A stretch of DNA of 64,000 nucleotides from the IMG/VR virus record IMGVR_UViG_2912464834_000002. One strand, given 5' to 3'. The notes beneath the pieces are model-generated. The model was given only the letters and a program-made list of their open reading frames with translations, did no database searches and was not told where the DNA came from. A program made the translations under genes and the position numbers. Source of the DNA: a virus. Taxonomy: Duplodnaviria > Caudoviricetes. This document shows positions 2,005 through 64,000 of this stretch, in pieces. Numbering within the stretch: the first letter of the stretch is position 1; each line of letters opens with the position of its first letter.

Positions 2005-2438
2005 TGGGCGGTTCCCATTTCGAACAGATCGCCGATCGCCTTCCGCGCGTGGCGCGTAGCGGCCGCGTTCGCGCGGTGATGCTCGGCGTCATAGGCGAGG
2101 TGATGCAGCTGGCACAGCGCCTTCAGGTTGTCGTCGTCGCAGTTCTCGGGTACGTGGTCGAGGTGCGCGATCGTGAGCACGACCGTCGTCCATTTGCGGC
2201 CGCAGTACTCGGATGCCTTGCAGTATCCGAGCAGCCGACCGTCGTCGGCCGCATAGACCTCGCCGTCACCCTCGAAGCGCTGGAACGTGCCGGCGTCCTT
2301 ATCGATGCCGCGCACGATGTGATCGCCGTTCGCGACGCGGCACTGCTCACAGCGATTGCCGGCCCGCGCGAGGATGCGCGTGCGGATCTCGGGCCAGTTG
2401 GCCGGATAGCGGCTGCGGTTCTCAGGCTTGATCGGCAT
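2001..2438 (-). CDS. HNH-like phage protein
   Basis: MPIKPENRSRYP...RCEQC...LTIAHLDHVPENCDDDNLKALCQLHHL. Confidence 0.75.
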   Translation of the reverse strand: MPIKPENRSRYPANWPEIRTRILARAGNRCEQCRVANGDHIVRGIDKDAGTFQRFEGDGEVYAADDGRLLGYCKASEYCGRKWTTVVLTIAHLDHVPENCDDDNLKALCQLHHLAYDAEHHRANAAATRHARKAIGDLFEMGTAQ

Positions 2439-7764: not shown

Positions 7765-7795
7765 TGTTGAAGTTCTGGTACCACGCCCAGCCGGA
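7705..7795 (-). repeat. DGR template repeat TR1
   Basis: 91 nt, AAC-rich (reads SGWAWYQNFNNGNQNNNHQNNELRARAVRR in the VR frame); homologous to 5 VRs. Confidence 0.95.
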
Positions 7796-7957
7796 GGTAT
7801 CGTGCGATCTACGTCGCCCGACCGATTTCTCAGTCGGAAAACTGCGCTGGACCTTTCCGCACGCCGGCGGCCGGTTTCCTTATTGCGCATGGCGGTGGCT
7901 TTGTGAGCCAGCGGCACGACCAGATTGATATATCGCTCAGCCGCGAAGGCCTTAACC

Positions 7958-8314
7958 TTAGCGGAGCGGGCGACGGTTTGCGGCGTTCTTCCAGCCGGTG
8001 GCCTGCTTCCCGATGCTCGTCGTCTTCTCGACGGCAGCTGCGTAGCCGTCACGTGCGATCAGGCGCTTGTCCATGCTGAGCCGAAGCAGCAGCTCGATCA
8101 CCTGCAGGCGCTCGAGCAATTCGACGAGGTGGGGTGCCTTGTCGGCCGCGACGTTCGCGCGAAACACCAACACCATGATCTCGATGCACTCCGCGCTGAT
8201 CTTCTCGCCGATGCTGCGCTTGAAGTCGCGGGGCATGTTCTTGACCAGGTTGGTAACGTCATCGAGCAACCCGTAGGCCGTTCGATATATCGGGAGTTGG
8301 TTGTGCAGGGCCAC
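7958..8314 (-). CDS. avd: DGR accessory variability determinant (four-helix bundle), copy 1
   Basis: 118 aa, LPIY...MPRDFKRSIGEKI...IGKQATGWK; lies between the targets and the TR. Confidence 0.88.
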   Translation of the reverse strand: MALHNQLPIYRTAYGLLDDVTNLVKNMPRDFKRSIGEKISAECIEIMVLVFRANVAADKAPHLVELLERLQVIELLLRLSMDKRLIARDGYAAAVEKTTSIGKQATGWKNAANRRPLR

Positions 8315-9195: not shown

Positions 9196-9228
9196 AGAAA
9201 AGAAGCAGGCGCCACGAAGGACGCCCGC
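9196..9228 (-). terminator. Possible intrinsic terminator upstream of DGR1
   Basis: Minus strand GCGGGCG..CGCCTGC hairpin followed by TTCTTTT. Confidence 0.45.
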
Positions 9229-10347: not shown

Positions 10348-10605
10348 TCATGCTGTGCCTCGGACGACATCAAGTCGCTTCACCATGGGGTGCATGTGGC
10401 CACCGGTCGAAAGCGCAATGCGCAACCTGCGAACACAGGGAACGTTAAGTCGTTCCTCGTTCCATCGCCCGTGGTGCCATTCCTTGCGCGACTCGACAAC
10501 GCCGCTGAAAACGTGCGCGTTGCCACCCTTGCGACCGATCCAGCAAACGACCGTGCCAACCTTCGGCATTGCGCGATATTCCTTGCGGCGTTGACGTGCG
10601 TTCAT
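10348..10605 (-). CDS. Hypothetical protein
   Basis: MNARQRRKEYR...; AGGGG RBS upstream. Confidence 0.55.
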   Translation of the reverse strand: MNARQRRKEYRAMPKVGTVVCWIGRKGGNAHVFSGVVESRKEWHHGRWNEERLNVPCVRRLRIALSTGGHMHPMVKRLDVVRGTA

Positions 10606-10631
10606 CGTCGTTCCCCTTCGTGTTGCGTTGG

Positions 10632-10739
10632 TCAGTGGCGCTGCCGGCGAGTCGGCGCCTTCCTGAGATCGAAGGCGGCGACGAGCAGAAGCGCTGCGGC
10701 GAAAATCCCCAGGCCGAAGCCGATAAGCAGGTTGATCAC
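10632..10739 (-). CDS. 35-aa single-TM peptide (not in the ORF track)
   Basis: (M)INLLIGFGLGIFAAALLLVAAFDLRKAPTRRQRH, GGAG upstream. Confidence 0.5.
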   Translation of the reverse strand: MINLLIGFGLGIFAAALLLVAAFDLRKAPTRRQRH

Positions 10740-10942
10740 AGATTCGTACTCCGAAATTAATTGGTGACTGAACCGTTTCCCGCTTCCTGACTGCGCTCAA
10801 GGAATGGCACTGTCACAATGCCATTCGATCAGAGCAGTCGAACTCTCAAGGGCGCGCACTCGGGGTGCTGCATGCTGCGCTGCTCGGTTGATGGATGCGG
10901 AGGATCCGCGGCCGAATGCGCGCTCTTGAGAGCATTGTTTTA

Positions 10943-11019
10943 CGTCCCCGTCCGGCTACACCTGGCAGAGCCAGCTCCGGACCGGGGACGGTGCGACGGG
11001 TTACCACGCCACTCGTCGC
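10943..11019 (-). ncRNA. Conserved two-hairpin RNA in the pL leader
   Basis: Same architecture as 63734-63812, with compensatory stem changes and identical loop sequence. Confidence 0.7.
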
Positions 11020-11131
11020 CGGGCGCCGCATTGCGGTAGCAGCTCATCAGGCCGCCATTTCTCGCGCTTTTACATTCAGCCGCACGAGGCCAAGGGCTGG
11101 GTGCTGGTGCACCTATTCATCTGCCGTCAGG

Positions 11132-11178
11132 GTTACAGAGCGATCCGCCGTGGCGGTGGCGCAGCGATCTGCGCTGCG
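11132..11178 (-). promoter_or_regulatory. nut-like antitermination site (hairpins + boxA)
   Basis: Minus strand CGCTCTGTAAC (boxA-like) preceded by two hairpins; conserved at 63941-63990. Confidence 0.6.
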
Positions 11179-11186
11179 TTGATGGA

Positions 11187-11224
11187 ACAATAGCAAACGC
11201 TTTCGATGAACGCAAGCAAATGCT
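11187..11224 (-). promoter_or_regulatory. pL promoter with two oL operators
   Basis: TTGCGT-17-TATTGT on the minus strand; AGCA-NN-TGCT-like sites at 11192 and 11215. Confidence 0.75.
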
Positions 11225-11327
11225 ATCGGAACATGGCAAAAAAATTCAGCGGGCGAGGCCGCTGCTATTACATATGATGAAAAGCCTGCGCTGGCAGGCC
11301 GGTGGAGATCGGATTTGGAGTAGTTAT

Positions 11328-12116
11328 TCAGTCTTCGATGGCTGAGCCTCGCGGCATGATCGCGGCGACGCGGTGTATCGACCGAACGGTGCCCATGGAG
11401 CGCGTGATCGGGGGGATGCCATTGTTGATTGAGCCAAGGCATACTTCGCCGTCTCGGATCCAGAGCAACTCTTTGACGACAGCGCTTCCGTCCGTGAATT
11501 TGACAACAACGTCGTCGCCCGGAAGGGCCTCGGCATTTGGCTCAACGACGATATATTCGCCGCTCTTAATGCGCGGCCGCATGCTATCGCCGCGCACCTT
11601 CAGCCCATAGGCTTCCGAGTCACGTAGACGCACTTCCGGCAGCATCGCGCAGCCGTGACCGACTGGATAATCATCAATATTGATATATCCATCGGGTCCT
11701 CCTTGAACTTCGCCGACCACAACGACGCCCCTCCCAGGTCTCAGCCTCAATTCTTCGCCAACGTTTGACTCAAGCATTTTGTCGATGCTAGGCCGAGAAC
11801 CGGGCGGCAAATTGCTGATGAGGTCGCCACTTTGCCCGATTCTCTGGTCTTCAGTGGCCGCATAAATGTGCTTTGGAGATGCGTCTTTCGGTGAAAACCC
11901 GATGTCGAAATACAACTCTTGAAGAGAGAGCTCGGCCTCGAGCCGCCTTGCTGCCTTCCAGCCAAAGCTTTTCCCTTCACGGTAGTTTTCGTTGAGCAAC
12001 TGCCTCAGGCGCGTCGCGTCTTGATTGTGGTTACGGGCAAAGGCGGCAACATTGCCGTCGGTTTCTTTGTCCACGAGCGCTTGTAGGCGATTTCGTCGAT
12101 GGGCGTCTATGTCCAT
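11328..12116 (-). CDS. CI-like repressor (HTH + S24 peptidase)
   Basis: N-terminal HTH; VRGDSM catalytic Ser and VKEL Lys; divergent from cro. Confidence 0.9.
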   Translation of the reverse strand: MDIDAHRRNRLQALVDKETDGNVAAFARNHNQDATRLRQLLNENYREGKSFGWKAARRLEAELSLQELYFDIGFSPKDASPKHIYAATEDQRIGQSGDLISNLPPGSRPSIDKMLESNVGEELRLRPGRGVVVVGEVQGGPDGYINIDDYPVGHGCAMLPEVRLRDSEAYGLKVRGDSMRPRIKSGEYIVVEPNAEALPGDDVVVKFTDGSAVVKELLWIRDGEVCLGSINNGIPPITRSMGTVRSIHRVAAIMPRGSAIED

Positions 12117-23646: not shown

Positions 23647-25735
23647 TCGACTCCGTACGTCGGTGCGCCGGGCATGGACGCCACCTCCGCGCATCAGCGT
23701 GCCGGCATGGGCGGACAGGTATCGCAAGCTCGCGAAGGAGGCCGGCAGCACGTCGGGCAATTGGGAAACGTCGACGGTCGAGGTGGCGCGCGGGCCGATG
23801 CTTGCCGTAACCGAGCCTGGCGTGCACGTCGTCACGACGATGGTAAGCACGCAGCTGCTCAAGACGGCCCTTCTCGAAAACGTCTTTGGTTACTTCGCGC
23901 ACCTGGACCCGTGCCCGATCCTCCTGCTGCAGCCGAAAGAGGATGCGGCGGAACAGTTCAGTAAAGAACGGATCAGCCCGCTGATCCGCGTCACGCCCGT
24001 TCTGCGCGAGCTCGTCGGCACGAGCAAGACACGCAATGCGGACGAGACGCTGCTGTTCAAGGCGTTCCCGGGCGGATTTCTGGCACTCGCAGGCGCAGGC
24101 AGTCCTGACAACCTCGCGCGCCGGCCGGTGCGGGTCATCCTCGCTGACGAGGTGGACAAGTATCCGGTGACGCGTGAGGGCGAGCCGATTGCGCTTGCCG
24201 AGGAGCGGACCGCCACGTTCGGCGTCAACTGGCTGTCGATCCGAGCTTGCTCGCCGACGGTTGAAGATGAAAGCCGGATCGAGGCCAGCTATAAGGAATC
24301 GGATCAGCGCCGAGCATCGATCGCGTGCCCGCATTGCGGGCATCGCATGTTTCCAGACTTCTTCAAGCATGTCGACTGGGACAAGCGCCGCGACGAAAGC
24401 GGGAATGTGGTCGAGCATTACCCCAAAACGGCGCGGATCTCGTGCGAGTCATGCGGGCAGATCTGGTCCGAAGGGGACCGGCTCCGCGCATTGCAGACGG
24501 CGCGCTGGCATCAGACTCGGCCGTTCGAATGCTGTGGATCCCGGCACGTCCCGCTCGACGCGTACGAGCGAGCATGGCGCGGGCCCGAGGACGAGCGGGA
24601 ATCGACGACCGACGCCGCAATCGATGTTGTCTGGGACTGGTGGGAAAGCGACCGCCATGCGGTGTATCGCGCCAAATGCCCCGATTGCGGCGAATGGAAG
24701 GTGGACAACGAGCACGCGGGCTTCCAGGCGAGCAAGCTTTATAGCCCGTGGCAGAAGGACAAACCGCCCGACATCGCGACCAAATGGCTGAAGGCCGAGG
24801 GCGACGAAGAGAAGAAGCAGACCTGGTGGAATACGCAGGCCGGCATGCCGTATCGCCCGAACTCGGGTAAGGCGCTGCGCCTCGAGGCGCTCGTCGCGCG
24901 CGGTGAGCGATGGGCCGCGGAAGTGCCTGACGGCGTCGCCGTCATCACGGTCGGCGTCGACACCCAGGACTATCGCTTCGAGGTCGAGGTTGTTGGCTGG
25001 GGGCGCAACGAGGAAAGCTGGTCGATCGCTTACGAGGTGATCGAGGGTGACATGGAAACCCCTGATCCATGGGAGCGCCTTGACGCGTTGCTGAATCGAA
25101 TCTGGCATCGCGCCGACGGGCGCCCGTTTGAGGCGATGGCGGTTTGTATCGACTCCGGCGGTCACCACACGCAGAAAGTCTACGACTTTTCTAAGGCACG
25201 TCTCGGCCGCAAGGTCTGGGCGATCAAGGGTGAGTCGGCAGTCAGCGGCAAGCGTAACCCTGTGTGGCCGGTCAAGAAGCCGTCGCGCCGCACGAAAGCA
25301 TCATTCCGGCCGGTGATCATCGGTGTGAATTCAGCGAAGGACACCGTCCGAAGCCGCTTGCACGTCGAAGAGGCGGGCGCCGGATTCATGCACTTCCCGA
25401 ACGATCGCGACATTGGCTATTTCGAGCAGCTCACGTCGGAGCGATCCGTCGTGAAGGTGTCAGGTGGCCAGAAATATCGCGTGTGGGAATTGCCGTCTGG
25501 CCGCGCGAACGAAGCGCTGGACTGTCGCGTGTATGCATACGCTGCGCTCTGTGGCCTGACACACCTCGGGCTGAAGCTGAACAAGCGAGCGGATCTCGTT
25601 TCGATGCCGGTCGACTATGACGCCGTGTCTGCGGCTGTTTCACCCGCTCCGATGCCAGCCTCCGAGCCGGTATCGCAGGTAGCTGTAGCCGATTCGAAGC
25701 CCGTCAGGAAGAAGTTAACGAACCGTCTCGCGTAG
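23582..25735 (+). CDS. Terminase large subunit (GpA family)
   Basis: STQLLKT Walker A variant, LADEVDKYP, CPHCG, GVDTQ, IDSGG and NEALDC. Confidence 0.92.
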   Translation: MSTSKLPNSASRKPISPSEKADRLRTSVRRAWTPPPRISVPAWADRYRKLAKEAGSTSGNWETSTVEVARGPMLAVTEPGVHVVTTMVSTQLLKTALLENVFGYFAHLDPCPILLLQPKEDAAEQFSKERISPLIRVTPVLRELVGTSKTRNADETLLFKAFPGGFLALAGAGSPDNLARRPVRVILADEVDKYPVTREGEPIALAEERTATFGVNWLSIRACSPTVEDESRIEASYKESDQRRASIACPHCGHRMFPDFFKHVDWDKRRDESGNVVEHYPKTARISCESCGQIWSEGDRLRALQTARWHQTRPFECCGSRHVPLDAYERAWRGPEDERESTTDAAIDVVWDWWESDRHAVYRAKCPDCGEWKVDNEHAGFQASKLYSPWQKDKPPDIATKWLKAEGDEEKKQTWWNTQAGMPYRPNSGKALRLEALVARGERWAAEVPDGVAVITVGVDTQDYRFEVEVVGWGRNEESWSIAYEVIEGDMETPDPWERLDALLNRIWHRADGRPFEAMAVCIDSGGHHTQKVYDFSKARLGRKVWAIKGESAVSGKRNPVWPVKKPSRRTKASFRPVIIGVNSAKDTVRSRLHVEEAGAGFMHFPNDRDIGYFEQLTSERSVVKVSGGQKYRVWELPSGRANEALDCRVYAYAALCGLTHLGLKLNKRADLVSMPVDYDAVSAAVSPAPMPASEPVSQVAVADSKPVRKKLTNRLA

Positions 25736-25742
25736 GGAAGAA

Positions 25743-25988
25743 ATGGCGATCACCGATGGAATGAGTACTGCGGATATGCAGTCGAGATTGGCTGCGCTGC
25801 AGGCGGCCTATTTCGATCTAGCCTCCGGGGCCAAGATCGTGACCGCCACGTACAACCAGGGCGACGGAACAAAGTCGGTCACGTATCAGCAAAGCGACAT
25901 TACCCAGGTCCGGAAGGCCATCGAGATGCTCCAGAAGGCTCTCGGAATCATCTGCCACTATCCACGCGCACGCAGGGTGCTGTTTTAA
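25743..25988 (+). CDS. gpW-like head completion protein
   Basis: Small ORF between terL and portal. Confidence 0.75.
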   Translation: MAITDGMSTADMQSRLAALQAAYFDLASGAKIVTATYNQGDGTKSVTYQQSDITQVRKAIEMLQKALGIICHYPRARRVLF

Positions 25989-27658
25989 TGCCATCTCTCA
26001 TCGTCGACAGTTCGGGCAGGCCCTTCGGGGACGTGCCGGCGGGCGGTCGTGCGCGTGCCGATAACTCGCCGTCGCCAGGAGCGATCCTGCCGCCGTATTC
26101 GAGCTTGTTCCCATACGAAGCCTCGAATATCCAGACGACGGAAATGGGCGATTGGCTGCCCTATATCCGGTCGCCTGATTCCGAGATCAATCAGTTCCGT
26201 GATCGCATGGTCGCGCGATCGCGCGATCTCTCTCGGAATGATGGTTGGGCGAATGGCGGGATCACCCGCATTCTGGACAATACCGTCGGCGCGCATCTGC
26301 GCCTGTCGGCAAATCCGGATTGGCGTGCGCTCGCGCGCTTCAGCAAGAAGTTCGACGCGACATGGGCCAACGAGATGCGCCAGGCGATCGAGTCGCTCTG
26401 GCGAGGTTACTCGGAGGATCTTGGCCGCTACAACGACGTGTCGCGGCAGCTGACAGTTTCGCAGCAGATGCGGCTCGCGCTGCGTCATAAGCTGATCGAC
26501 GGCGAAGCTCTCTTCGTTTCGTATTGGAAGCCTGAGCGCGTGGGTCGCGGTGGCGCGCAATATGCGACCGCGTTTCAGGTGGTCGATCCGGACCGGCTAT
26601 CGAATCCGTATCTCGCGGTCGACACGCGATATATGCGTGGTGGCGTCGAGATCGACGACGATGGCGTACCGCTCGCGTATCACATCCGGAAAGCTCAGCC
26701 GTATGACACTTACAACACCGTCGAATCGATGGAATGGGAACGTGTCGAGCGTGAGGATGAGGACGGTTGGCGTCGGGTCATCCACGACTATGAGCGTGAC
26801 CGCGCTGGTCAGCACCGCGGCATCGGTATCTTCACGCCCGTGCTGTCTCACGCCAAGATGCTCGCCCGCTATTACGGCGTCGAGCTCCAAGCGGCGACGG
26901 TCGCAACGATCTTCGGTACGTATGTGACCAGTCCATACGATCCGGCCATGATCGAAGCAGCGATGGATAGCGAAGGCGAGGAACTCGGTTATTACCAGGA
27001 GATCCGGACGGATTGGGCAAAAGATCGGCCCGCAATGCTCAACAATGTGCGCGTCCCGACGTTGGCGCCTGGTGAGGAAATCAAGCAGGTCGCTGCAGCG
27101 CATCCGCACAGTGGCTTTCAAGATTTTGCGCACGAAATGCTGCGCTCGATCGCGGCTGCGCTTGGCGTCTCGGCAGAGCAGATCACGCAGGACTGGAGCA
27201 AAACCAACTATTCGAGCGCGCGCGCAGCGTTGCTCGAGAGCTGGAAGACGCTCAGCCGACGAAGCGCTGAATTCAAGATGGGATCGGCTACGCCGCTGTA
27301 TGCGACCTGGTTGCAAGAAGTGATCGAGCGAGGCGATCTCGACGATGTCTTGCCGATCGATGCGCCCGATTTCGTCGAGGCACCGACTGCATATGCGCGG
27401 TGCGATTGGCTCGGCGTCGCACGCGGCTGGGTGGATCCTGTGAAAGAGAAGCAGGGCGCGGTACTCGGCATGGATGCGGGCCTGTCTACGCTCAAGCGTG
27501 AATGTGCTGAACAAGGGCTCGACTGGGAAGAAGTGATCGCGCAGCGTGCCGTCGAATTGGCTGCATTCAAGCGACTCGGAATCGCCCCGCCCAGCTGGGC
27601 TGGAATCGAGACTGCGGCCGATGCAGCCTCTCCTGAAGAAGAGCCTCAACCTCAATGA
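25988..27658 (+). CDS. Portal protein, lambda family
   Basis: ARSRDLSRND, NYSSARAALLE and WVDPVKE motifs. Confidence 0.92.
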   Translation: MPSLIVDSSGRPFGDVPAGGRARADNSPSPGAILPPYSSLFPYEASNIQTTEMGDWLPYIRSPDSEINQFRDRMVARSRDLSRNDGWANGGITRILDNTVGAHLRLSANPDWRALARFSKKFDATWANEMRQAIESLWRGYSEDLGRYNDVSRQLTVSQQMRLALRHKLIDGEALFVSYWKPERVGRGGAQYATAFQVVDPDRLSNPYLAVDTRYMRGGVEIDDDGVPLAYHIRKAQPYDTYNTVESMEWERVEREDEDGWRRVIHDYERDRAGQHRGIGIFTPVLSHAKMLARYYGVELQAATVATIFGTYVTSPYDPAMIEAAMDSEGEELGYYQEIRTDWAKDRPAMLNNVRVPTLAPGEEIKQVAAAHPHSGFQDFAHEMLRSIAAALGVSAEQITQDWSKTNYSSARAALLESWKTLSRRSAEFKMGSATPLYATWLQEVIERGDLDDVLPIDAPDFVEAPTAYARCDWLGVARGWVDPVKEKQGAVLGMDAGLSTLKRECAEQGLDWEEVIAQRAVELAAFKRLGIAPPSWAGIETAADAASPEEEPQPQ

Positions 27659-28521
27659 AAAATCTCCCGTTCCTTGCGCAGCGGTTGTTCAATACGCCGC
27701 TCGCCATCACTCCCGCGAAAGCGGAAATGGTGATGGCTGCGCTTGCAGATCGTTTTGGACTCACGAAGCTGTTTCGAGCGAGCGGTGAATCGTTCGCAAT
27801 GAGCGAATTCGGATTCGAGGAAGAGGAGTCCGAGCCGGACTACCGCTATTACGATGTCGTCGCGGGCGTAGCGATCATTCCGATCACGGGCACACTGGTG
27901 CAGAAGTCGGGGTACATGCGTCCGACATGTGGGATGACGGGCTACGACGGCATCCGGGCGAATCTGAGCACGGCGCTCGAAGACCCTGCCGTTCGTGCCA
28001 TCATGCTCGACATCGACAGCGGCGGTGGTGAAGTTGCCGGCTGCTTTGATCTTGTCGACGCAATCTACGGTGCGCGAGGCACGAAACCGATCTGGGCTGT
28101 TCTTTCGGAGAGCGCTTATTCCGCTGCATATGCAATTGCAAGCGCGGCGGATCGCATTACTGTGCCGCGTACTGGTGGCACCGGGTCGGTCGGCGTGATC
28201 TGCGCGCATGTTGATTTCTCCCAGGCACTCGCCAAAGACGGAGTTACCGTCACGATGATCCACTACGGAGATCGGAAGGCCGACGGGAATGAATTCAATC
28301 CTCTGTCCGACGAAGCCCTGAGCCGGTTCCAAGCGGACGTTGACGCGATGGGCGAGCTGTTCGTCAAGACGGTCGCACGCAATCGAAAACTGTCTGCAGC
28401 CACAGTTCGTGGCACGCAGGCTGGCACGTTTCTCGGCGCTGATGGCGTCGAGATCGGCTTCGCCGATGCCGTGATGGCGCCGGACGAGGCATTCCGATCC
28501 CTGCTCGCCGAGCTGGGCTGA
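27655..28521 (+). CDS. S49 prohead protease
   Basis: DIDSGGGEV, AYSAAYAIAS and GSVGV motifs. Confidence 0.9.
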   Translation: MKNLPFLAQRLFNTPLAITPAKAEMVMAALADRFGLTKLFRASGESFAMSEFGFEEEESEPDYRYYDVVAGVAIIPITGTLVQKSGYMRPTCGMTGYDGIRANLSTALEDPAVRAIMLDIDSGGGEVAGCFDLVDAIYGARGTKPIWAVLSESAYSAAYAIASAADRITVPRTGGTGSVGVICAHVDFSQALAKDGVTVTMIHYGDRKADGNEFNPLSDEALSRFQADVDAMGELFVKTVARNRKLSAATVRGTQAGTFLGADGVEIGFADAVMAPDEAFRSLLAELG

Positions 28522-28549
28522 CATATCCCAAACCCCAAAAGGTTCATTT

Positions 28550-29170
28550 ATGAGCATTCGCACCCTTGCGGCGCGCGGGCTTTCGTTCGCCCATCTGGCC
28601 GGCCTGTCGTCCCGCGCGGCCCGCGCCGAGAACGAAGACGACGAGCGCAAGCAGCGCGAAGGTGAATCGGACGACGATTACGCCAAGCGTATGGAGGAGC
28701 TCGACGAGAAGGAGGAAGAGGCACGTCGAGCCGAAGAAGAGAAGAAGGACGAAGAGTCTCGGCGCGCTGAAGAAGAGCGCAAAGAGGAAGAGGCTCGCGC
28801 TCGCGGCGAAGACGATCAGGACAGCGATCTCGAGGCCGACGATGACGACGAAGAGATGCGAGGGAAAAGTGCATCCGCCCGCGCGCGTAAGCGTGAACGG
28901 GCACGTTGTGCCGCGATCTTCGCATCGCCGGCCGCGGCGCGCAATCCGGTGCTTGCGGCCAATCTCGCATTCAAAACGAGCATGAAGCGGAGCGAAGCAA
29001 TCGCAATGCTCAAGGCGACTCCGGCGCCGGCATCGGCTGCGCACCTCAATCGGGCCGAGCGCAATCCGAATCTCGGCGCGGACGGTGGTCCGAAGCCGTC
29101 GCAGCAGCAAGCCCTGGCAGCGCGCTGGGACGCGAACCTGAAGGCCGCGAGCGCTCCCCGCCGCCGCTGA
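28550..29170 (+). CDS. Scaffold-like protein
   Basis: Acidic coiled coil, ERARCAAIF; lies between protease and decoration gene. Confidence 0.65.
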   Translation: MSIRTLAARGLSFAHLAGLSSRAARAENEDDERKQREGESDDDYAKRMEELDEKEEEARRAEEEKKDEESRRAEEERKEEEARARGEDDQDSDLEADDDDEEMRGKSASARARKRERARCAAIFASPAAARNPVLAANLAFKTSMKRSEAIAMLKATPAPASAAHLNRAERNPNLGADGGPKPSQQQALAARWDANLKAASAPRRR

Positions 29171-29212
29171 TTCGCGTCATCGATCTTCACCTCTTCCTCA
29201 AGGAAATGAAAC

Positions 29213-30145
29213 ATGGGTAACCCCACCTATACGCCGCTCCAGGAAAACTGGCACAACGGCGGATTCATCGTATCGCTGGCGAATGGTCACCAGTCGATCG
29301 ATCAAGGCATTCTGACCGGCGGCGCTAAGGTGCTCGCAGGCACCGTCCTCGGCCTGGTCACGGCGGCTCTGACGGCAAGCGCCGCCGCGCTCGGCACGAA
29401 TACGGGCAATGGCACCGTCGGAGCTGTGACGCCACAGGCTGCGCCCGCGACGATGATCGGCGTCTACAACGTGCTGATGACCAGCGCGACGGCATTTACG
29501 GTCACGGCTCCGGACGGCCAGACGGCGACCGGGTCCGTCGGGTCCCCATTCAGTGGACTCGGCGTTGGCTTCACGATCACCGCCGGCGGCACGCCGTTTG
29601 CCGCGAACGATTCGTTCACGCTCACGACGACGAGCGCGCCCGGAAACCCGAACATCGCTTCCGCAGCCGGCGCAAGCAACGCCGGCAACGGCACCATCGG
29701 TTCGCTGAGCGTTGCCGGGTATGCGGCGAAGGCCGGCGTCTATACGGTCGAATTCGATGATGCGACCCATTTCATTGTCTCGGATCCCACGGGCGCCGAA
29801 GTGGGTCATGGCACGACCGGTGTCGCGTTCAAGGCCGGCGGCCTCTCGTTCACGATCACGGCCGGTGGCACGGCATTCGGGCCTGGCGACAGTTTCGCGA
29901 TCACGGTCGCGGCGGGTTCGGGGAAATACAAAGCGTTCGATCCCGCCAATGTCGATGGCTCCCAGGTGCCGACCGGCATCCTGTTCGCGACGAAGGACGT
30001 CACGACCGTCGACAAGCCGTGTGCGGTCGTCGTGCGGCTCTGTGAAGTCAACGCATCGGAACTCGTCTGGCCGGCTGGCATGAGTGCCGCAGCGATCGCT
30101 GCAGCTCAGGCCCAGCTGAAAGCGCTCGGCATCGTGCCGCGCTAA
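29213..30145 (+). CDS. Head decoration protein (gpD-like) with two inserted repeat domains
   Basis: AGTVLG and DGSQVPTGIL...EVNASELVWP termini enclose two GNGT(V/I)G...FTITAGGT.F..DSF repeats. Confidence 0.8.
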   Translation: MGNPTYTPLQENWHNGGFIVSLANGHQSIDQGILTGGAKVLAGTVLGLVTAALTASAAALGTNTGNGTVGAVTPQAAPATMIGVYNVLMTSATAFTVTAPDGQTATGSVGSPFSGLGVGFTITAGGTPFAANDSFTLTTTSAPGNPNIASAAGASNAGNGTIGSLSVAGYAAKAGVYTVEFDDATHFIVSDPTGAEVGHGTTGVAFKAGGLSFTITAGGTAFGPGDSFAITVAAGSGKYKAFDPANVDGSQVPTGILFATKDVTTVDKPCAVVVRLCEVNASELVWPAGMSAAAIAAAQAQLKALGIVPR

Positions 30146-30166
30146 TAGGGGCGCCCGCCGACCGTC

Positions 30167-30189
30167 AAGCCGCCTACGGGCGGCTTTTT
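30167..30189 (+). terminator. Intrinsic terminator-like hairpin
   Basis: AAGCCGCCTACGGGCGGCTTTTT. Confidence 0.65.
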
Positions 30190-30253
30190 CATTTCTGCAA
30201 TTCCGAGGCCGCCAGCAAGGCGGCTTTTCTTTTTTTCCGAAAAGGAACAAGCC

Positions 30254-31318
30254 ATGGCTGGCGAAATCATCGACATTTTCAACGGTGACGCTTTCAGCGC
30301 ACTGGCCCTCACGCAGGGCGTCCAGCGCAACCCGTACCAACCGGGTGCGCTGGGGCAGTTGAACATCTTCGACGAAAACCCGATTCGCACGACGGCCGTT
30401 TCGGTCGAAGAGCGTACAGGCACGTTGAAGCTCATCGGCTTCAGCGAGCGCGGCACCGAAGGCACGCAGCGCACGACCGAGCGTCGCAAAATGCGCTACT
30501 TCGACGTGCCGCGGCTGATGCACGACGATACGATCCACACGTATGAAATCCAGAACATCCGCGAATTTCCGGAAGGCCCGACCGGTCAGATCGTGACCGT
30601 GCCGATGCAGCTCGAACGCGAAGTCGCGCGCCGGCTCGCAGGCCCGACCGGCCTGCTCGCGAGCGTCGAATACACGAAGGAATATCTGCGCCTGGCAGCG
30701 GTGCAGGGCCTCGTGTTGAACCCCGCCGACGGCAGCATTCTGTACAACTGGTTCGACGAGTTCCAGATCACCCAGGCGCAGGAAGTCGGCTTCAATCTGA
30801 GCGCGGGCACTGCGAACACCCTGCGTCCGCTGATCAACGGCGTCAAACGCAATATGGCCCGCAAGGCGCAGGGCGCGTTCACGAACCAGACGCGGATTAT
30901 GGCGCTCTGCGGCGACGTGTTTTATGACCAGTTCTCGAACCATCCGGACGTGATCCGGACGTTCCTGAACTGGGAAGGCGCTCGCGACATCCGCGACGAC
31001 GCGTTCGGCGACGCGTTCGCATCGTTCGAGTTCGACGGCATCACGTGGGTCAACTACCGCGGCTCGGACGACAACGTCACGGTCAAGATCCCGGACGACA
31101 AGGTCAAGTTCTTCCCGGTGAATGCACCCGGCATCTTCCAAGAGGTGCTGGCGCCGGGCGAATCGGCCGAGTTCATCAACCAGCCGGGCGCGCCGGTCTA
31201 CGTGCTGCCGATCATCGATCGCGACCGTCGCATGTGGTGGAAGATGGAGGTCTACTCCTATCCGCTCTACCTGTGCACGCGTCCGGAGGTTCTCCAGAGC
31301 GGCCGTGCGGAGGCGTAA
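30254..31318 (+). CDS. Major capsid protein (gpE family)
   Basis: DIFNGDAFS...SYPLYLCTRPEVL. Confidence 0.88.
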   Translation: MAGEIIDIFNGDAFSALALTQGVQRNPYQPGALGQLNIFDENPIRTTAVSVEERTGTLKLIGFSERGTEGTQRTTERRKMRYFDVPRLMHDDTIHTYEIQNIREFPEGPTGQIVTVPMQLEREVARRLAGPTGLLASVEYTKEYLRLAAVQGLVLNPADGSILYNWFDEFQITQAQEVGFNLSAGTANTLRPLINGVKRNMARKAQGAFTNQTRIMALCGDVFYDQFSNHPDVIRTFLNWEGARDIRDDAFGDAFASFEFDGITWVNYRGSDDNVTVKIPDDKVKFFPVNAPGIFQEVLAPGESAEFINQPGAPVYVLPIIDRDRRMWWKMEVYSYPLYLCTRPEVLQSGRAEA

Positions 31319-31651
31319 ATGCCCATCGACTGGAACCGCGTCGTCATCGGGCCGCTGCACGGTGTTTTCGCTGAACCGGTGACGTACAAGCCGTTCGCTG
31401 GCGGATCGTTCTCGATCACTGGCGTATTCGACGATGCATACCTCAAGGAAGTGATGTTCGAGGATGCATCGTCGGGTGTGACCGAAGTGTCGGCGGTACT
31501 GGGTGTGCAGCTTTCGCAGTTTCCATCGCTTCCGGTCCAAAACGACCAGCTCTCAATCCCCAGCGTCAATAGCACGTACGTAGTTCGGCAGGTTCGCCCG
31601 GACTCGCGTGGTGCTGCAAGGCTTCTTCTCAATAAGGTGAGTTCGTCGTGA
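31319..31651 (+). CDS. Head-tail joining protein
   Basis: Position and FAEPVTY...GVFD motif. Confidence 0.7.
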   Translation: MPIDWNRVVIGPLHGVFAEPVTYKPFAGGSFSITGVFDDAYLKEVMFEDASSGVTEVSAVLGVQLSQFPSLPVQNDQLSIPSVNSTYVVRQVRPDSRGAARLLLNKVSSS

Positions 31652-32205
31652 CGACATCCGCAGATCTTCGGGCGCTGTTCGTAACGGCGCTCAAGGGTGC
31701 GACGGATGCAGGGGACGCAGTTTTCTCGCCGTACGACTGGCCGACGGCGCCGAACGCGTATCCATCGATCCTCGTGCACGCGCGTAAGGAGCGGAAGGAA
31801 TCGCTCGGTCGCAACGTACCGCAGTTCAACGTCACGGCGACGCTAGAGATCATCGCTCGAACGAAATCGGCAGCGCTTGTCGGCGATGCGGGCTCCGCGG
31901 CCGCGCTTGCTGCCGCGGAGAAGCTAAAAGCCCAGATCGAATCAGTGTTGATCAACAACCCTGCGATCTGGGCAGATCCGGCCGGTGGCCAGCGTATTCA
32001 GCAGTTTTCATCCGTCGATTCGGAGCTCACGACGAGCTCGGATGGAGAGATGCCGATCGCGGAATTGCTGATGACGATCGACGTCGAGTTCTTCCAATCG
32101 GCGGATGACTTCTTCCCGATCCCGCTCACGCCGCTGCAAGGCGTTGACCTGGTGATCCAGGAGCCGGACGGCACGACGCAGCCTGGCTTGACCATCAACT
32201 TCTGA
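31648..32205 (+). CDS. Tail terminator-like protein
   Basis: Position before the sheath; coupled. Confidence 0.6.
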   Translation: MTTSADLRALFVTALKGATDAGDAVFSPYDWPTAPNAYPSILVHARKERKESLGRNVPQFNVTATLEIIARTKSAALVGDAGSAAALAAAEKLKAQIESVLINNPAIWADPAGGQRIQQFSSVDSELTTSSDGEMPIAELLMTIDVEFFQSADDFFPIPLTPLQGVDLVIQEPDGTTQPGLTINF

Positions 32206-56169: not shown

Positions 56170-56200
56170 TGTTGAAGTTCTGGTACCACGCCCAGCCGGA
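56110..56200 (-). repeat. DGR template repeat TR2
   Basis: Identical to TR1 except position 56123 (A on the TR strand, versus C at 7718). Confidence 0.95.
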
Positions 56201-56362
56201 GGTATCGTGCGATCTACGTCGCCCGACCGATTTCTCAGTCGGGAAACTGCGCTGGACCTTTCCGCACGCCGGCGGCCGGTTTCCTCATTGCGCATGGCGG
56301 TGGCTTTGTGAGCCAGCGGCACGGCCAGATTGATATATCGCTCAGCCGCGAAGGCCTTGACC

Positions 56363-56719
56363 TTAGCGGAGCGGGCGACGGTTTGCGGCGTTCTTCCAGC
56401 CTGTGGCCTGCTTCCCGATGCTCGTCGTCTTCTCGACGGCAGCTGCGTAGCCGTCACGTGAGATCAGGCGCTTGTCCATACTGAGACGAAGCAGCAGCTC
56501 GATCACCTGCAGACGCTCGAGCAATTCGACGAGGTGCGGAGCCTTGTCGGCCGCGACGTTCGCGCGGAACACCAACACCATGATCTCGATGCACTCCGCG
56601 TTGATCTTCTCGCCGATGCTGCGCTTGAAGTCGCGGGGCATGTTCTTGACCAAAGTGGTGACATCATCGAGCAGCCCATAGGCCGCTCGATATATCGGAA
56701 GTTGGTTGTGCAGGGCCAC
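56363..56719 (-). CDS. avd: DGR accessory variability determinant, copy 2
   Basis: 118 aa, four substitutions relative to copy 1. Confidence 0.88.
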   Translation of the reverse strand: MALHNQLPIYRAAYGLLDDVTTLVKNMPRDFKRSIGEKINAECIEIMVLVFRANVAADKAPHLVELLERLQVIELLLRLSMDKRLISRDGYAAAVEKTTSIGKQATGWKNAANRRPLR

Positions 56720-63194: not shown

Positions 63195-63227
63195 CGCACC
63201 CTCCATGCAGTTGAAATGGACGAAGGG

Positions 63228-63608
63228 TTAAATCGACAATCTGCGGACGGCTCGGGCGCGCAACTCGTCGTCCTGGCGGTAGCCGTCCTGGTAGCCAAGG
63301 TCGAAGTACTGGCACCACGCCCAGCCGGCGTAGCCCGGGTCCGTGTCGGGTTGGTTCGACCAGTAGGCGTCCGGCTCGAACTCGCCGCGATGGTTTTCCA
63401 GCAGGAAGAGCATCTCGATGCGCGTCGGCAGGTCGCCGCCGATCGACTTCGCCCACTCCATCTGCGCCTGCCAGCTGGCGTCGTCGTTGTCGCCCGGAAG
63501 GAGCACGACGTGATTCTGTTCGCCGGCCGTGTTGGTGACGATGCCGACGTAGATCTCGCCCTCGGCGAGCTGCGGAACGGAAACAGCGGTGGGGGTGGGC
63601 GCGTTCAT
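63228..63608 (-). CDS. Remote DGR target B3 (DUF1566/CLec-like)
   Basis: Paralog of B1/B2 with a C-terminal VR, about 7 kb from TR2. Confidence 0.9.
   Translation of the reverse strand: MNAPTPTAVSVPQLAEGEIYVGIVTNTAGEQNHVVLLPGDNDDASWQAQMEWAKSIGGDLPTRIEMLFLLENHRGEFEPDAYWSNQPDTDPGYAGWAWCQYFDLGYQDGYRQDDELRARAVRRLSI
63239..63328 (-). repeat. Variable repeat VR2c
   Basis: 13 mismatches to TR2, all at adenines. Confidence 0.95.
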
Positions 63609-63733
63609 AGAAACTCCAGAAAGGAAGAACTACTAAGTAAATTGAAGTGTGAAACGGCAAACGGTGCTTGCTGCTGCAGCTCTCACCGGTGGCGCCTCGA
63701 AGAACGAACCGCCGCCGGTCAGAACTGCTTTCA

Positions 63734-63812
63734 CTCGCGCGCCCGGCTACTCCCGGCCGTGCCGGCTCCGGGCCGCGCGAGGTTGTGTGCCGATTACCAC
63801 GCCATCGGTCAC
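63734..63812 (-). ncRNA. Conserved two-hairpin RNA in the leftward leader
   Basis: Structural homolog of 10943-11019. Confidence 0.7.
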
Positions 63813-63938
63813 GTGTTGCTGGCTGTCTTGCATCAGGCTCACTCGGCGCACAGCGGTCTTCCGCTAAGTCCGTCCTGACTCACGACGCTGATCGCGCCGG
63901 CCGGTTGCTCCGCAGAAGCGGTCCCGGCTTACCTTCGA

Positions 63939-63990
63939 TTGTTAGAGAGCGATCCGCCTGGGCGGTGGCGCAGCGCGTTGTGTGCTGCGT
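63939..63990 (-). promoter_or_regulatory. nut-like site (hairpins + boxA)
   Basis: Minus strand CGCTCTCTAACAA after two hairpins; homolog of 11132-11178. Confidence 0.6.
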
Positions 63991-64000
63991 TGGGAAGGAC

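Follow-up and report, generated by a model that had tools for sequence, protein, structure and literature searches.

Organisation of the early-left leaders

The DNA analysed here (the window, 64,000 nucleotides) contains two prophages, P1 and P2, each with a three-stem hairpin on the minus strand, in the leader of the early-left (pL) operon. The features of both loci are listed in Table 1. Along the minus strand of P1, a cI-like repressor gene is followed by its terminator, a promoter, the leader and the early-left genes. The putative P1 promoter is weaker than the strong TTGACA-17-TATAAT promoters found elsewhere and occupies the same spot relative to hairpin A. The P2 promoter, TAGACA-17-TAAAGT, falls just beyond the end of the window, in locus L001.

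Table 1. Features of the early-left regions of prophages P1 and P2 (window coordinates).
Prophage	Feature	Position	Strand	Remark
P1	Terminator-like hairpin in the early-left operon	9205–9228	-	Before the DGR target genes
P1	Second ORF after the leader, 85 aa	10348–10605	-	Arginine-rich N-terminus, first 12 residues MNARQRRKEYRA
P1	First small ORF after the leader, 35 aa	10634–10741	-	Hydrophobic peptide
P1	Long hairpin, 87 nt	10845–10931	-	3' of the three-stem hairpin; module varies between leader types
P1	Three-stem hairpin	10943–10990	-	78.7 bits with covariance model R1, whose seed includes P1
P1	Hairpin 2, 8-bp stem, loop UGGCGUGGUAA	10993–11019	-	Immediately 5' of the three-stem hairpin in the RNA
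P1	boxA-like element, CGCUCUGUAAC (RNA sense)	11132–11142	-	
P1	Hairpins A (11160–11178) and B (11145–11156)	11145–11178	-	At the transcript 5' end, directly ahead of boxA
P1	Putative pL promoter, TTGCGT, 17 nt, TATTGT	11187–11215	-	Among inverted operator half-sites (ATAGCA...); read by eye
P1	Intrinsic terminator closing the repressor transcript	11238–11264	-	Just upstream of pL
P1	cI-like repressor gene, 291 aa	11328–12203	-	Named by position and length
P2	First gene after the leader	63215–63609	-	Small DGR-target-like protein
P2	Three-stem hairpin	63734–63781	-	83.4 bits with R1, whose seed includes P2
P2	Hairpin 2, loop GGCGUGGUA	63787–63812	-	
P2	Two-stem 'AGCAA' module, GCCGG-GA-CCGC-UUCU-GCGG-AGCAA-CCGGC	63900–63928	-	Shape like the three-stem hairpin; loops differ
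P2	boxA GCUCUCUAAC (63941–63950), hairpin B (63954–63965), hairpin A (63969–63989)	63941–63989	-	

The order of elements is the same in every intact locus examined: an operator-flanked sigma-70 promoter, two hairpins, an rrn-type boxA, a gap of 136–260 nt, the three-stem hairpin, a further hairpin and the first gene. The untranslated leader RNA is 250–450 nt long. Promoters in the intact loci are mostly perfect or near-perfect matches to TTGACA-17-TATAAT and lie amid repeated operator-like sequences; the operators differ between loci, and conservation of the leader extends to the first start codon.

The boxA of the intact loci examined, GCUCU(U/C/G)UAAC, is found about 50 nt past the predicted transcription start and follows two covarying hairpins; two loci have a variant, GCUCCUUAGAC. 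The six rrn leaders of the host genome contain a hairpin, then UGCUCUUUAAAAA, and then a GUGUGGG boxC. Since a hairpin precedes boxA in the phage signal as it does in the host rrn leaders, the order is that of rrn rather than that of lambda. With a hairpin and a boxA matching the host rrn boxA near the start of its transcript, the whole leader is of the rrn type. The boxA and its two hairpins, which head the same leader as the three-stem hairpin, were absent from the preliminary description of this DNA. They form the most widely shared part of the leader (11132–11186 in P1 and 63941–63994 in P2, minus strand) and also occur in phages that have no three-stem hairpin, namely phiBtTUL1a, vB_PR2a and its relatives, vB_RY3 and KL4. 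Thus, the three-stem hairpin is not essential for a boxA leader. Together, the hairpin and the boxA block make the early-left promoter region of these temperate phages recognisable from sequence.

The distance from boxA to the three-stem hairpin is 136–185 nt, and 259 nt in the Trinickia-like type. Between the hairpin and the first gene or ribosome-binding site lie about 60 to 330 nt, depending on the locus, and this interval contains another hairpin. In the leaders examined, no terminator follows the motif and no ribosome-binding site overlaps it.

The modules between boxA and the three-stem hairpin are mosaic across leader types. P1-type leaders and some Pandoraea leaders have GGAUGAAUAGG, GAAAUGG and CCGC-loop-GCGG-CGCCC blocks in common. 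The 'AGCAA' module, with fixed GA-opposite-AGCAA loops and covarying stems, is present in P2-type leaders and in boxA leaders without the three-stem hairpin (also L005:2459–2493 and L004, about 2452–2482), and it is absent from Rfam. Its counterpart in L005 gives a partial match of 14.9 bits to the hairpin model. The long P1 palindrome at the 3' side of the motif is picked up by miRNA-precursor models on both strands. Four P2-type leaders (L012, L006, L008 and L015) contain, within the 40 nt that precede the first start codon, an A+U-rich stretch with UUAGUA just 5' of the first ribosome-binding site; its place is taken in Pandoraea-type leaders by a covarying hairpin with a UUCU...GAG loop.

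Structural conservation and strand of the RNA

Each copy of the three-stem hairpin in the window spans 48 bases. Its stems contain 8, 5 and 5 bp, a single base is bulged out, and the internal loop is asymmetric, with 2 bases facing 6. In the RNA sense of P1, the bulge is a G and the internal loop is AG opposite GUGUAG. The letters and the three stems given for both prophages in the preliminary description read as stated, with the bulge and the asymmetric loop retained, and a CATCAGGC block near the hairpin is common to P1 and P2 as claimed. The two hairpins differ at 15 of 48 positions. Twelve of these positions form six pairs that are altered on both sides, and all six are still Watson-Crick pairs. 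The proposal that the stems vary in sequence yet stay paired therefore holds for the two copies, and the wider alignment agrees. When the window is compared with itself by BLAST, the hairpins are not picked up; the only aligned stretch of the leaders is 11132–11181 against 63941–63992. As the pairing is nevertheless kept, structure is conserved here without sequence. Folded in the RNA sense, each hairpin has a predicted energy of -44 to -45 kcal/mol (z about -2.7 to -2.8).

With more copies sampled, chance can be ruled out. In the final set of 28 distinct sequences (an earlier set had 12), 96.2% of cells are in standard pairs, and compensatory changes are seen at 15 of the 18 pairs. None of 500 shuffles matches the observed pairing, and sliding the partner strand by one to three columns leaves only 26–44% of cells paired. 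A covariance model was built from Burkholderiales copies, as proposed at the outset, and covariation in the wide alignment is strong. The structure is conserved by compensatory change across three genera. All of the stems vary: in a pooled set of 44 distinct 54-nt copies, stem 1 occurs in 14 versions, stem 2 in 12 and stem 3 in 10. The loop nucleotides are invariant in 27–28 of the 28 distinct copies, and in the pooled set the 5' side of the loop is AG in 42 of 44 copies and the 3' side is G-(A/U)-G-U-N-G in all 44. A near-invariant loop held by freely changing stems points to specific recognition rather than mere stability. Copies of 53, 54, 55 and 56 nt are found, so that a reading frame is not preserved.

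An A-C mismatch in the RNA sense corresponds to G-U on the opposite strand, and the balance between the two can be used to assign the strand. G-U pairs outnumber A-C mismatches by 21 cells to 11 (26 to 11 in the pooled set). This bias is only about 2:1, and the strand call leans mainly on promoter orientation: the sense strand lies downstream of the promoter in every intact locus examined, which identifies the minus strand as the RNA. Covariation in the wide alignment and promoter orientation in the intact loci together uphold the original proposal of a structured RNA on the pL strand, within the pL leader.

The adjacent hairpin 2 was described as having different stems and an identical 11-nt loop in the two prophages. 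This is correct for P1 and P2; the identity does not extend to the wider set, in which only (G/C)GC-NNN-GUA is kept. Hairpin 2 is present in 23 of 35 loci, where its stem covaries and where it spans about 80 nt together with the three-stem hairpin, and it is missing from the other 12. RNAalifold, applied to eight leaders of the P1 and Pandoraea types, pairs GGCG in the hairpin-2 loop with an upstream CGCC (columns 120–123 with 140–143 of alignment A6; in P1, CGCC at about 11024–11027 and GGCG at about 11007–11010). The Trinickia-like leader has CGCG in both places, which amounts to one compensatory event, and P2-type leaders have only a 3-bp GCC/GGC match at the same sites. This pairing suggests a pseudoknot between the hairpin-2 loop and the upstream CGCC, with this single compensatory event as its basis.

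Distribution and neighbouring genes

Covariance model R1, constructed from P1, P2 and phage Bcep176, was searched against one genome per Burkholderia species and gave strong matches in 17 of 95 genomes. The source genome has exactly two matches, one per prophage, both leftward. Two weak genome matches (L023 and L024, 28–29 bits) lie in a coding-like context and were left out as probable chance hits. With a second model, R2, the motif was also found in two other genera of the same family: Pandoraea, in which 15 of 38 species genomes are positive, and a Trinickia-like lineage, with one genome. A pattern scan matched 63 IMG/VR viral contigs, every one of which is confirmed by the covariance model. 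The same kind of scan over genome contigs also returned three matches in Acidobacteriota and Chloroflexota metagenome bins; these are inside coding sequence, fail the model and were discarded as chance.

By BLAST, the leader is found in the isolated phages Bcep176, Magia, Bups phi1, BgManors32, vB_E192a, vB_PL1 and phi644-2, and the Magia copy is confirmed by the covariance model. The hosts of phages with the motif include the B. cepacia complex, B. pseudomallei, B. gladioli and Pandoraea. Two further records of 47,902 bp each, OK094664.1 ('Shewanella phage vB_Sb_QDWS') and OP650936.1 ('Hujiaoplasma phage zrk29-1'), carry a leader 80% identical to this Burkholderia one, and their host assignments therefore look doubtful.

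The genes that follow the leader are unrelated from locus to locus. The 35-aa hydrophobic peptide of P1 is conserved and is the first ORF after several leaders (also L011, L016 and L017); the junction of this ORF with the next gene is 93–100% identical in the unrelated phages PE067, phiE131, BcepC6B and BcepIL02. The arginine-rich N-terminus of the 85-aa ORF aligns with the arginine-rich motif of lambda N (MDAQTRRRERRA), with a BLAST E-value of 2.7 that is not significant, and this ORF is limited to P1 and one relative (L017), being absent from most loci with the motif. Terminator-like sites in the early-left operon do not exceed the number expected from shuffled sequence.

Candidate partner proteins were sought by clustering 4,228 ORFs from 10 kb on either side of the leader in 20 loci with the motif and three boxA loci without it. 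No protein cluster tracks the motif within these regions, a result that speaks for a partner from the host or for action purely in cis; N-like proteins, if small and fast-evolving, could be overlooked by this BLAST-based clustering. Clusters restricted to motif loci consist of spurious ORFs that overlap the leader itself. The widest cluster comprises proteins about 116 aa long whose genes lie between pL and the repressor gene; it is represented in 11 of the 20 motif loci and in all three motif-less phages. This protein is encoded on the opposite strand and has an arginine-rich start, MANRRRGRP... (L001, about 2085–2375, plus strand; Magia gp60). A scan for arginine-rich N-termini was uninformative, since the G+C-rich DNA yields many spurious Arg-rich ORFs.

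Other structured RNAs were also observed in these prophages. The RT-15 RNA of Rfam (RF03018) adjoins the reverse transcriptase of the diversity-generating retroelement (DGR) in each prophage of the window (7793–7975 and 56198–56380, minus strand). A Pandoraea prophage has a type II hammerhead ribozyme at L033:700–763 (plus strand; 42.8 bits, which exceeds the gathering score). It lies among the early-left genes, some 740 nt beyond the motif and on the other strand, and a weak type III match is seen at 963–1013 of the same locus.

Possible functions and relation to known systems

These observations support the presence of a functional structured RNA in the pL leader, and the hairpin probably helps early phage transcription or transcript survival. 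The conserved features include an invariant loop on free stems, placement in a host-type antitermination leader, no phage protein that tracks the motif within 10 kb, no overlap with a terminator or ribosome-binding site, and a variable distance to the first gene. They are best fitted by a cis-acting module that would be read by a component of the host transcription complex. We tentatively favour the possibility that the hairpin is a cis-acting module of a host-factor-dependent antitermination leader and, alongside boxA, makes early-left transcription resistant to termination.

In such a leader, the RNA would be made from the repressor-controlled early-left promoter, with the hairpin as one of its folded modules. 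If the analogy with rrn operons and lambda holds, the two hairpins and boxA would bring host NusB/S10 and the other Nus factors to RNA polymerase. The three-stem hairpin would emerge some 140–260 nt later, usually together with hairpin 2, and display a purine-rich internal loop, AG opposite G-W-G-U-N-G, to a conserved host component, which may be the elongating polymerase complex itself (as for HK022 put) or a factor attached to it. As a result, polymerase would be helped through the long leader and the mosaic early-left operon. What we infer here is that Nus factors are loaded, what the hairpin binds and how it acts on termination. Several observations count against an antitermination role: boxA leaders without the motif exist, each phage has one copy only, the rightward operon has none (unlike nut and put), and terminator-like sites are not enriched.

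A narrower version, which we regard as unlikely, is that the hairpin and hairpin 2 belong to a new RNA class whose members bind the host polymerase directly as it transcribes and make it termination-resistant without a phage protein. If true, this would be a second put-like system, unrelated in sequence and found in beta-proteobacterial phages alongside an rrn-type boxA.

The main alternative is that the same arrangement reflects processing or stability. A cleavage site, of the RNase III type or for some other nuclease, or a structure that protects the 5' end could detach the leader or stabilise the early mRNA, and the 18 bp of near-coaxial helix interrupted by a conserved asymmetric internal loop would suit such a site, as would its place between the boxA signal and the first gene, the long hairpins that flank it (10845–10931, for example), the flexible spacing to the start codon and the lack of any need for a partner phage protein. 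Classical RNase III substrates have longer stems, however, and a hairpin that only stabilises would not usually require six loop nucleotides to be kept so strictly from genus to genus. We consider this explanation rather unlikely.

Invariant internal-loop bases on free stems are also typical of protein recognition sites, and they would be accounted for by an operator at which an RNA-binding protein, be it a phage N-like protein or a different regulator of phage or host origin, controls the timing of the early-left genes or represses them. The small protein with the MNARQRRKEYRA N-terminus, encoded just downstream in P1 and one relative, would be a candidate ligand. Its insignificant alignment with lambda N, its absence from most motif loci, the failure of any cluster within 10 kb to track the motif, and the intervening hairpin and 60–330 nt that separate the motif from the first ribosome-binding site make such an operator improbable.

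Less probable still is a trans-acting small RNA or decoy, either the leader itself or a piece cut from it. P4 CI and the c4 RNA of phage P1 are such pieces cut from early leaders. The leader would be a conserved folded RNA made only upon derepression, and the possible pairing of the hairpin-2 loop with the upstream CGCC means that the region may fold as a compact domain. Against this, the element has no terminator of its own and matches neither C4 nor any other Rfam sRNA family, and reading of the leaders revealed no complement to the conserved loop (GAGUAG), whether as target or tertiary partner, that is consistent across leader types.

A riboswitch-like sensor of a small molecule is very improbable: the clustering of invariant bases in the internal loop resembles some small aptamers, but there is no expression platform in the form of a terminator or an overlapping ribosome-binding site, the downstream genes differ between loci, and Rfam gives no match. 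Finally, a protein-coding stretch or DNA-level site in place of an RNA is hardly credible, despite the small ORFs that deposited annotations place over the hairpin (Bcep176 gp28/gp29 and Magia gp58), since the frame of Magia gp58 is broken by a frameshift in P2, the copies vary in length, substitutions fall in base-paired couples and wobble pairs favour one strand. The annotation can be corrected accordingly: ORFs that deposited records show across the leader (Bcep176 gp28 and gp29 at L003; Magia gp58 and gp59 at L031) are probably spurious, and those that cover the hairpin itself (Bcep176 gp28/gp29 and Magia gp58) are very probably not genes.

To our knowledge, RNA elements that alter the behaviour of bacterial RNA polymerase or shape the early transcripts of phages are few: nut, put, EAR and a small number of others, nearly all of them from E. 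coli or Bacillus systems. The motif is present in cultivable phages (Bcep176, Magia, phi644-2 and BgManors32), so that the proposed cis-acting role is directly testable with existing phages and hosts.

The preliminary description could assign the hairpin to no known family, and this assessment stands. The gathering-score scan of the window with Rfam 15 gave nothing on the leader, and the leader was also unmatched at E-values up to 10 for 10600–11400 and up to 1 for seven loci. In the literature that was searched, we found no description of the three-stem element. The consensus forms that we assumed for the K-turn, the loop E/sarcin-ricin motif and the 11-nt receptor did not fit the internal loop on inspection, because the GA or AGUA/GAA positions that they require are not the conserved ones. 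The resemblance of the GUGU(A/G)G loop to the rrn boxC (GUGUGGG) was judged too weak to follow. In rrn operons, boxC works mainly via a leader-trailer helix, and boxA is necessary and sufficient to recruit the antitermination factors (PMC10250234).

RF02917, the Burkholderiales-2 motif, is an orphan candidate from the survey of Weinberg et al. 2017 (PMC5737381). The one Burkholderia instance that we inspected (L071) sits in a different prophage leader, which likewise combines a promoter, a boxA (GGCUCUUUAACAA) and folded RNA. RF02917 is a separate module: R2 does not match L071, and RF02917 does not match the window or the motif-bearing loci. Its highest score genome-wide is 24.7 bits, below the cut-off of 67.9, and that match lies at another place in the genome. 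RF02917 and the three-stem hairpin are modules of the same class of boxA-headed leader, not members of the same family.

The putL and putR sites of HK022 are protein-independent processive antiterminator RNAs, putR being about 270 nt into its transcript (PMC9378689). Like put, the present element is a cis-acting folded RNA in a lambdoid early leader with no dedicated phage protein evident. put comprises two adjacent stem-loops with bulges and non-canonical pairs in about 70 nt, compared with two hairpins in about 80 nt here, where the second is not always present. The put RNA binds the zinc-binding domain of the beta-prime subunit of RNA polymerase. The two systems differ in that put occurs in each early operon, suppresses termination without added protein factors, has no boxA and is found in phages of Enterobacteria; the phages here infect Burkholderiaceae and have one copy each, downstream of a boxA, and the rightward strand of the window has neither boxA nor motif. 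With filters off, R2 had no match in the pL-nun region of HK022 (24000–32000 searched; best score elsewhere 9.7 bits, E 0.45). A put-like identity for the hairpin, raised in the preliminary description, is entertained as a hypothesis only.

Like the leaders of rrn operons (boxB-boxA-boxC) and lambda nutL, the leader starts just after the promoter with hairpins and a boxA close to that of host rrn. It differs from them in that the motif is a separate module, 136–260 nt past boxA, and is neither boxB nor boxC. A lambda-type nut site was rejected on this distance, as its boxB hairpin, to which an N protein binds, would lie within a few bases of boxA, and because no N-like protein tracks the motif within 10 kb and no conserved N gene was found. 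Lambda has an RNase III hairpin between nutL and N, and T7 early mRNA contains hairpins with internal loops. The element resembles these in its asymmetric internal loop and in its place between an antitermination signal and the first early gene; its helices are shorter. The three-stem hairpin is thus a covariation-supported motif that is not in Rfam and is distinct from nut, put and RF02917, and it belongs to a known kind, the structured early-leader elements of temperate phages.
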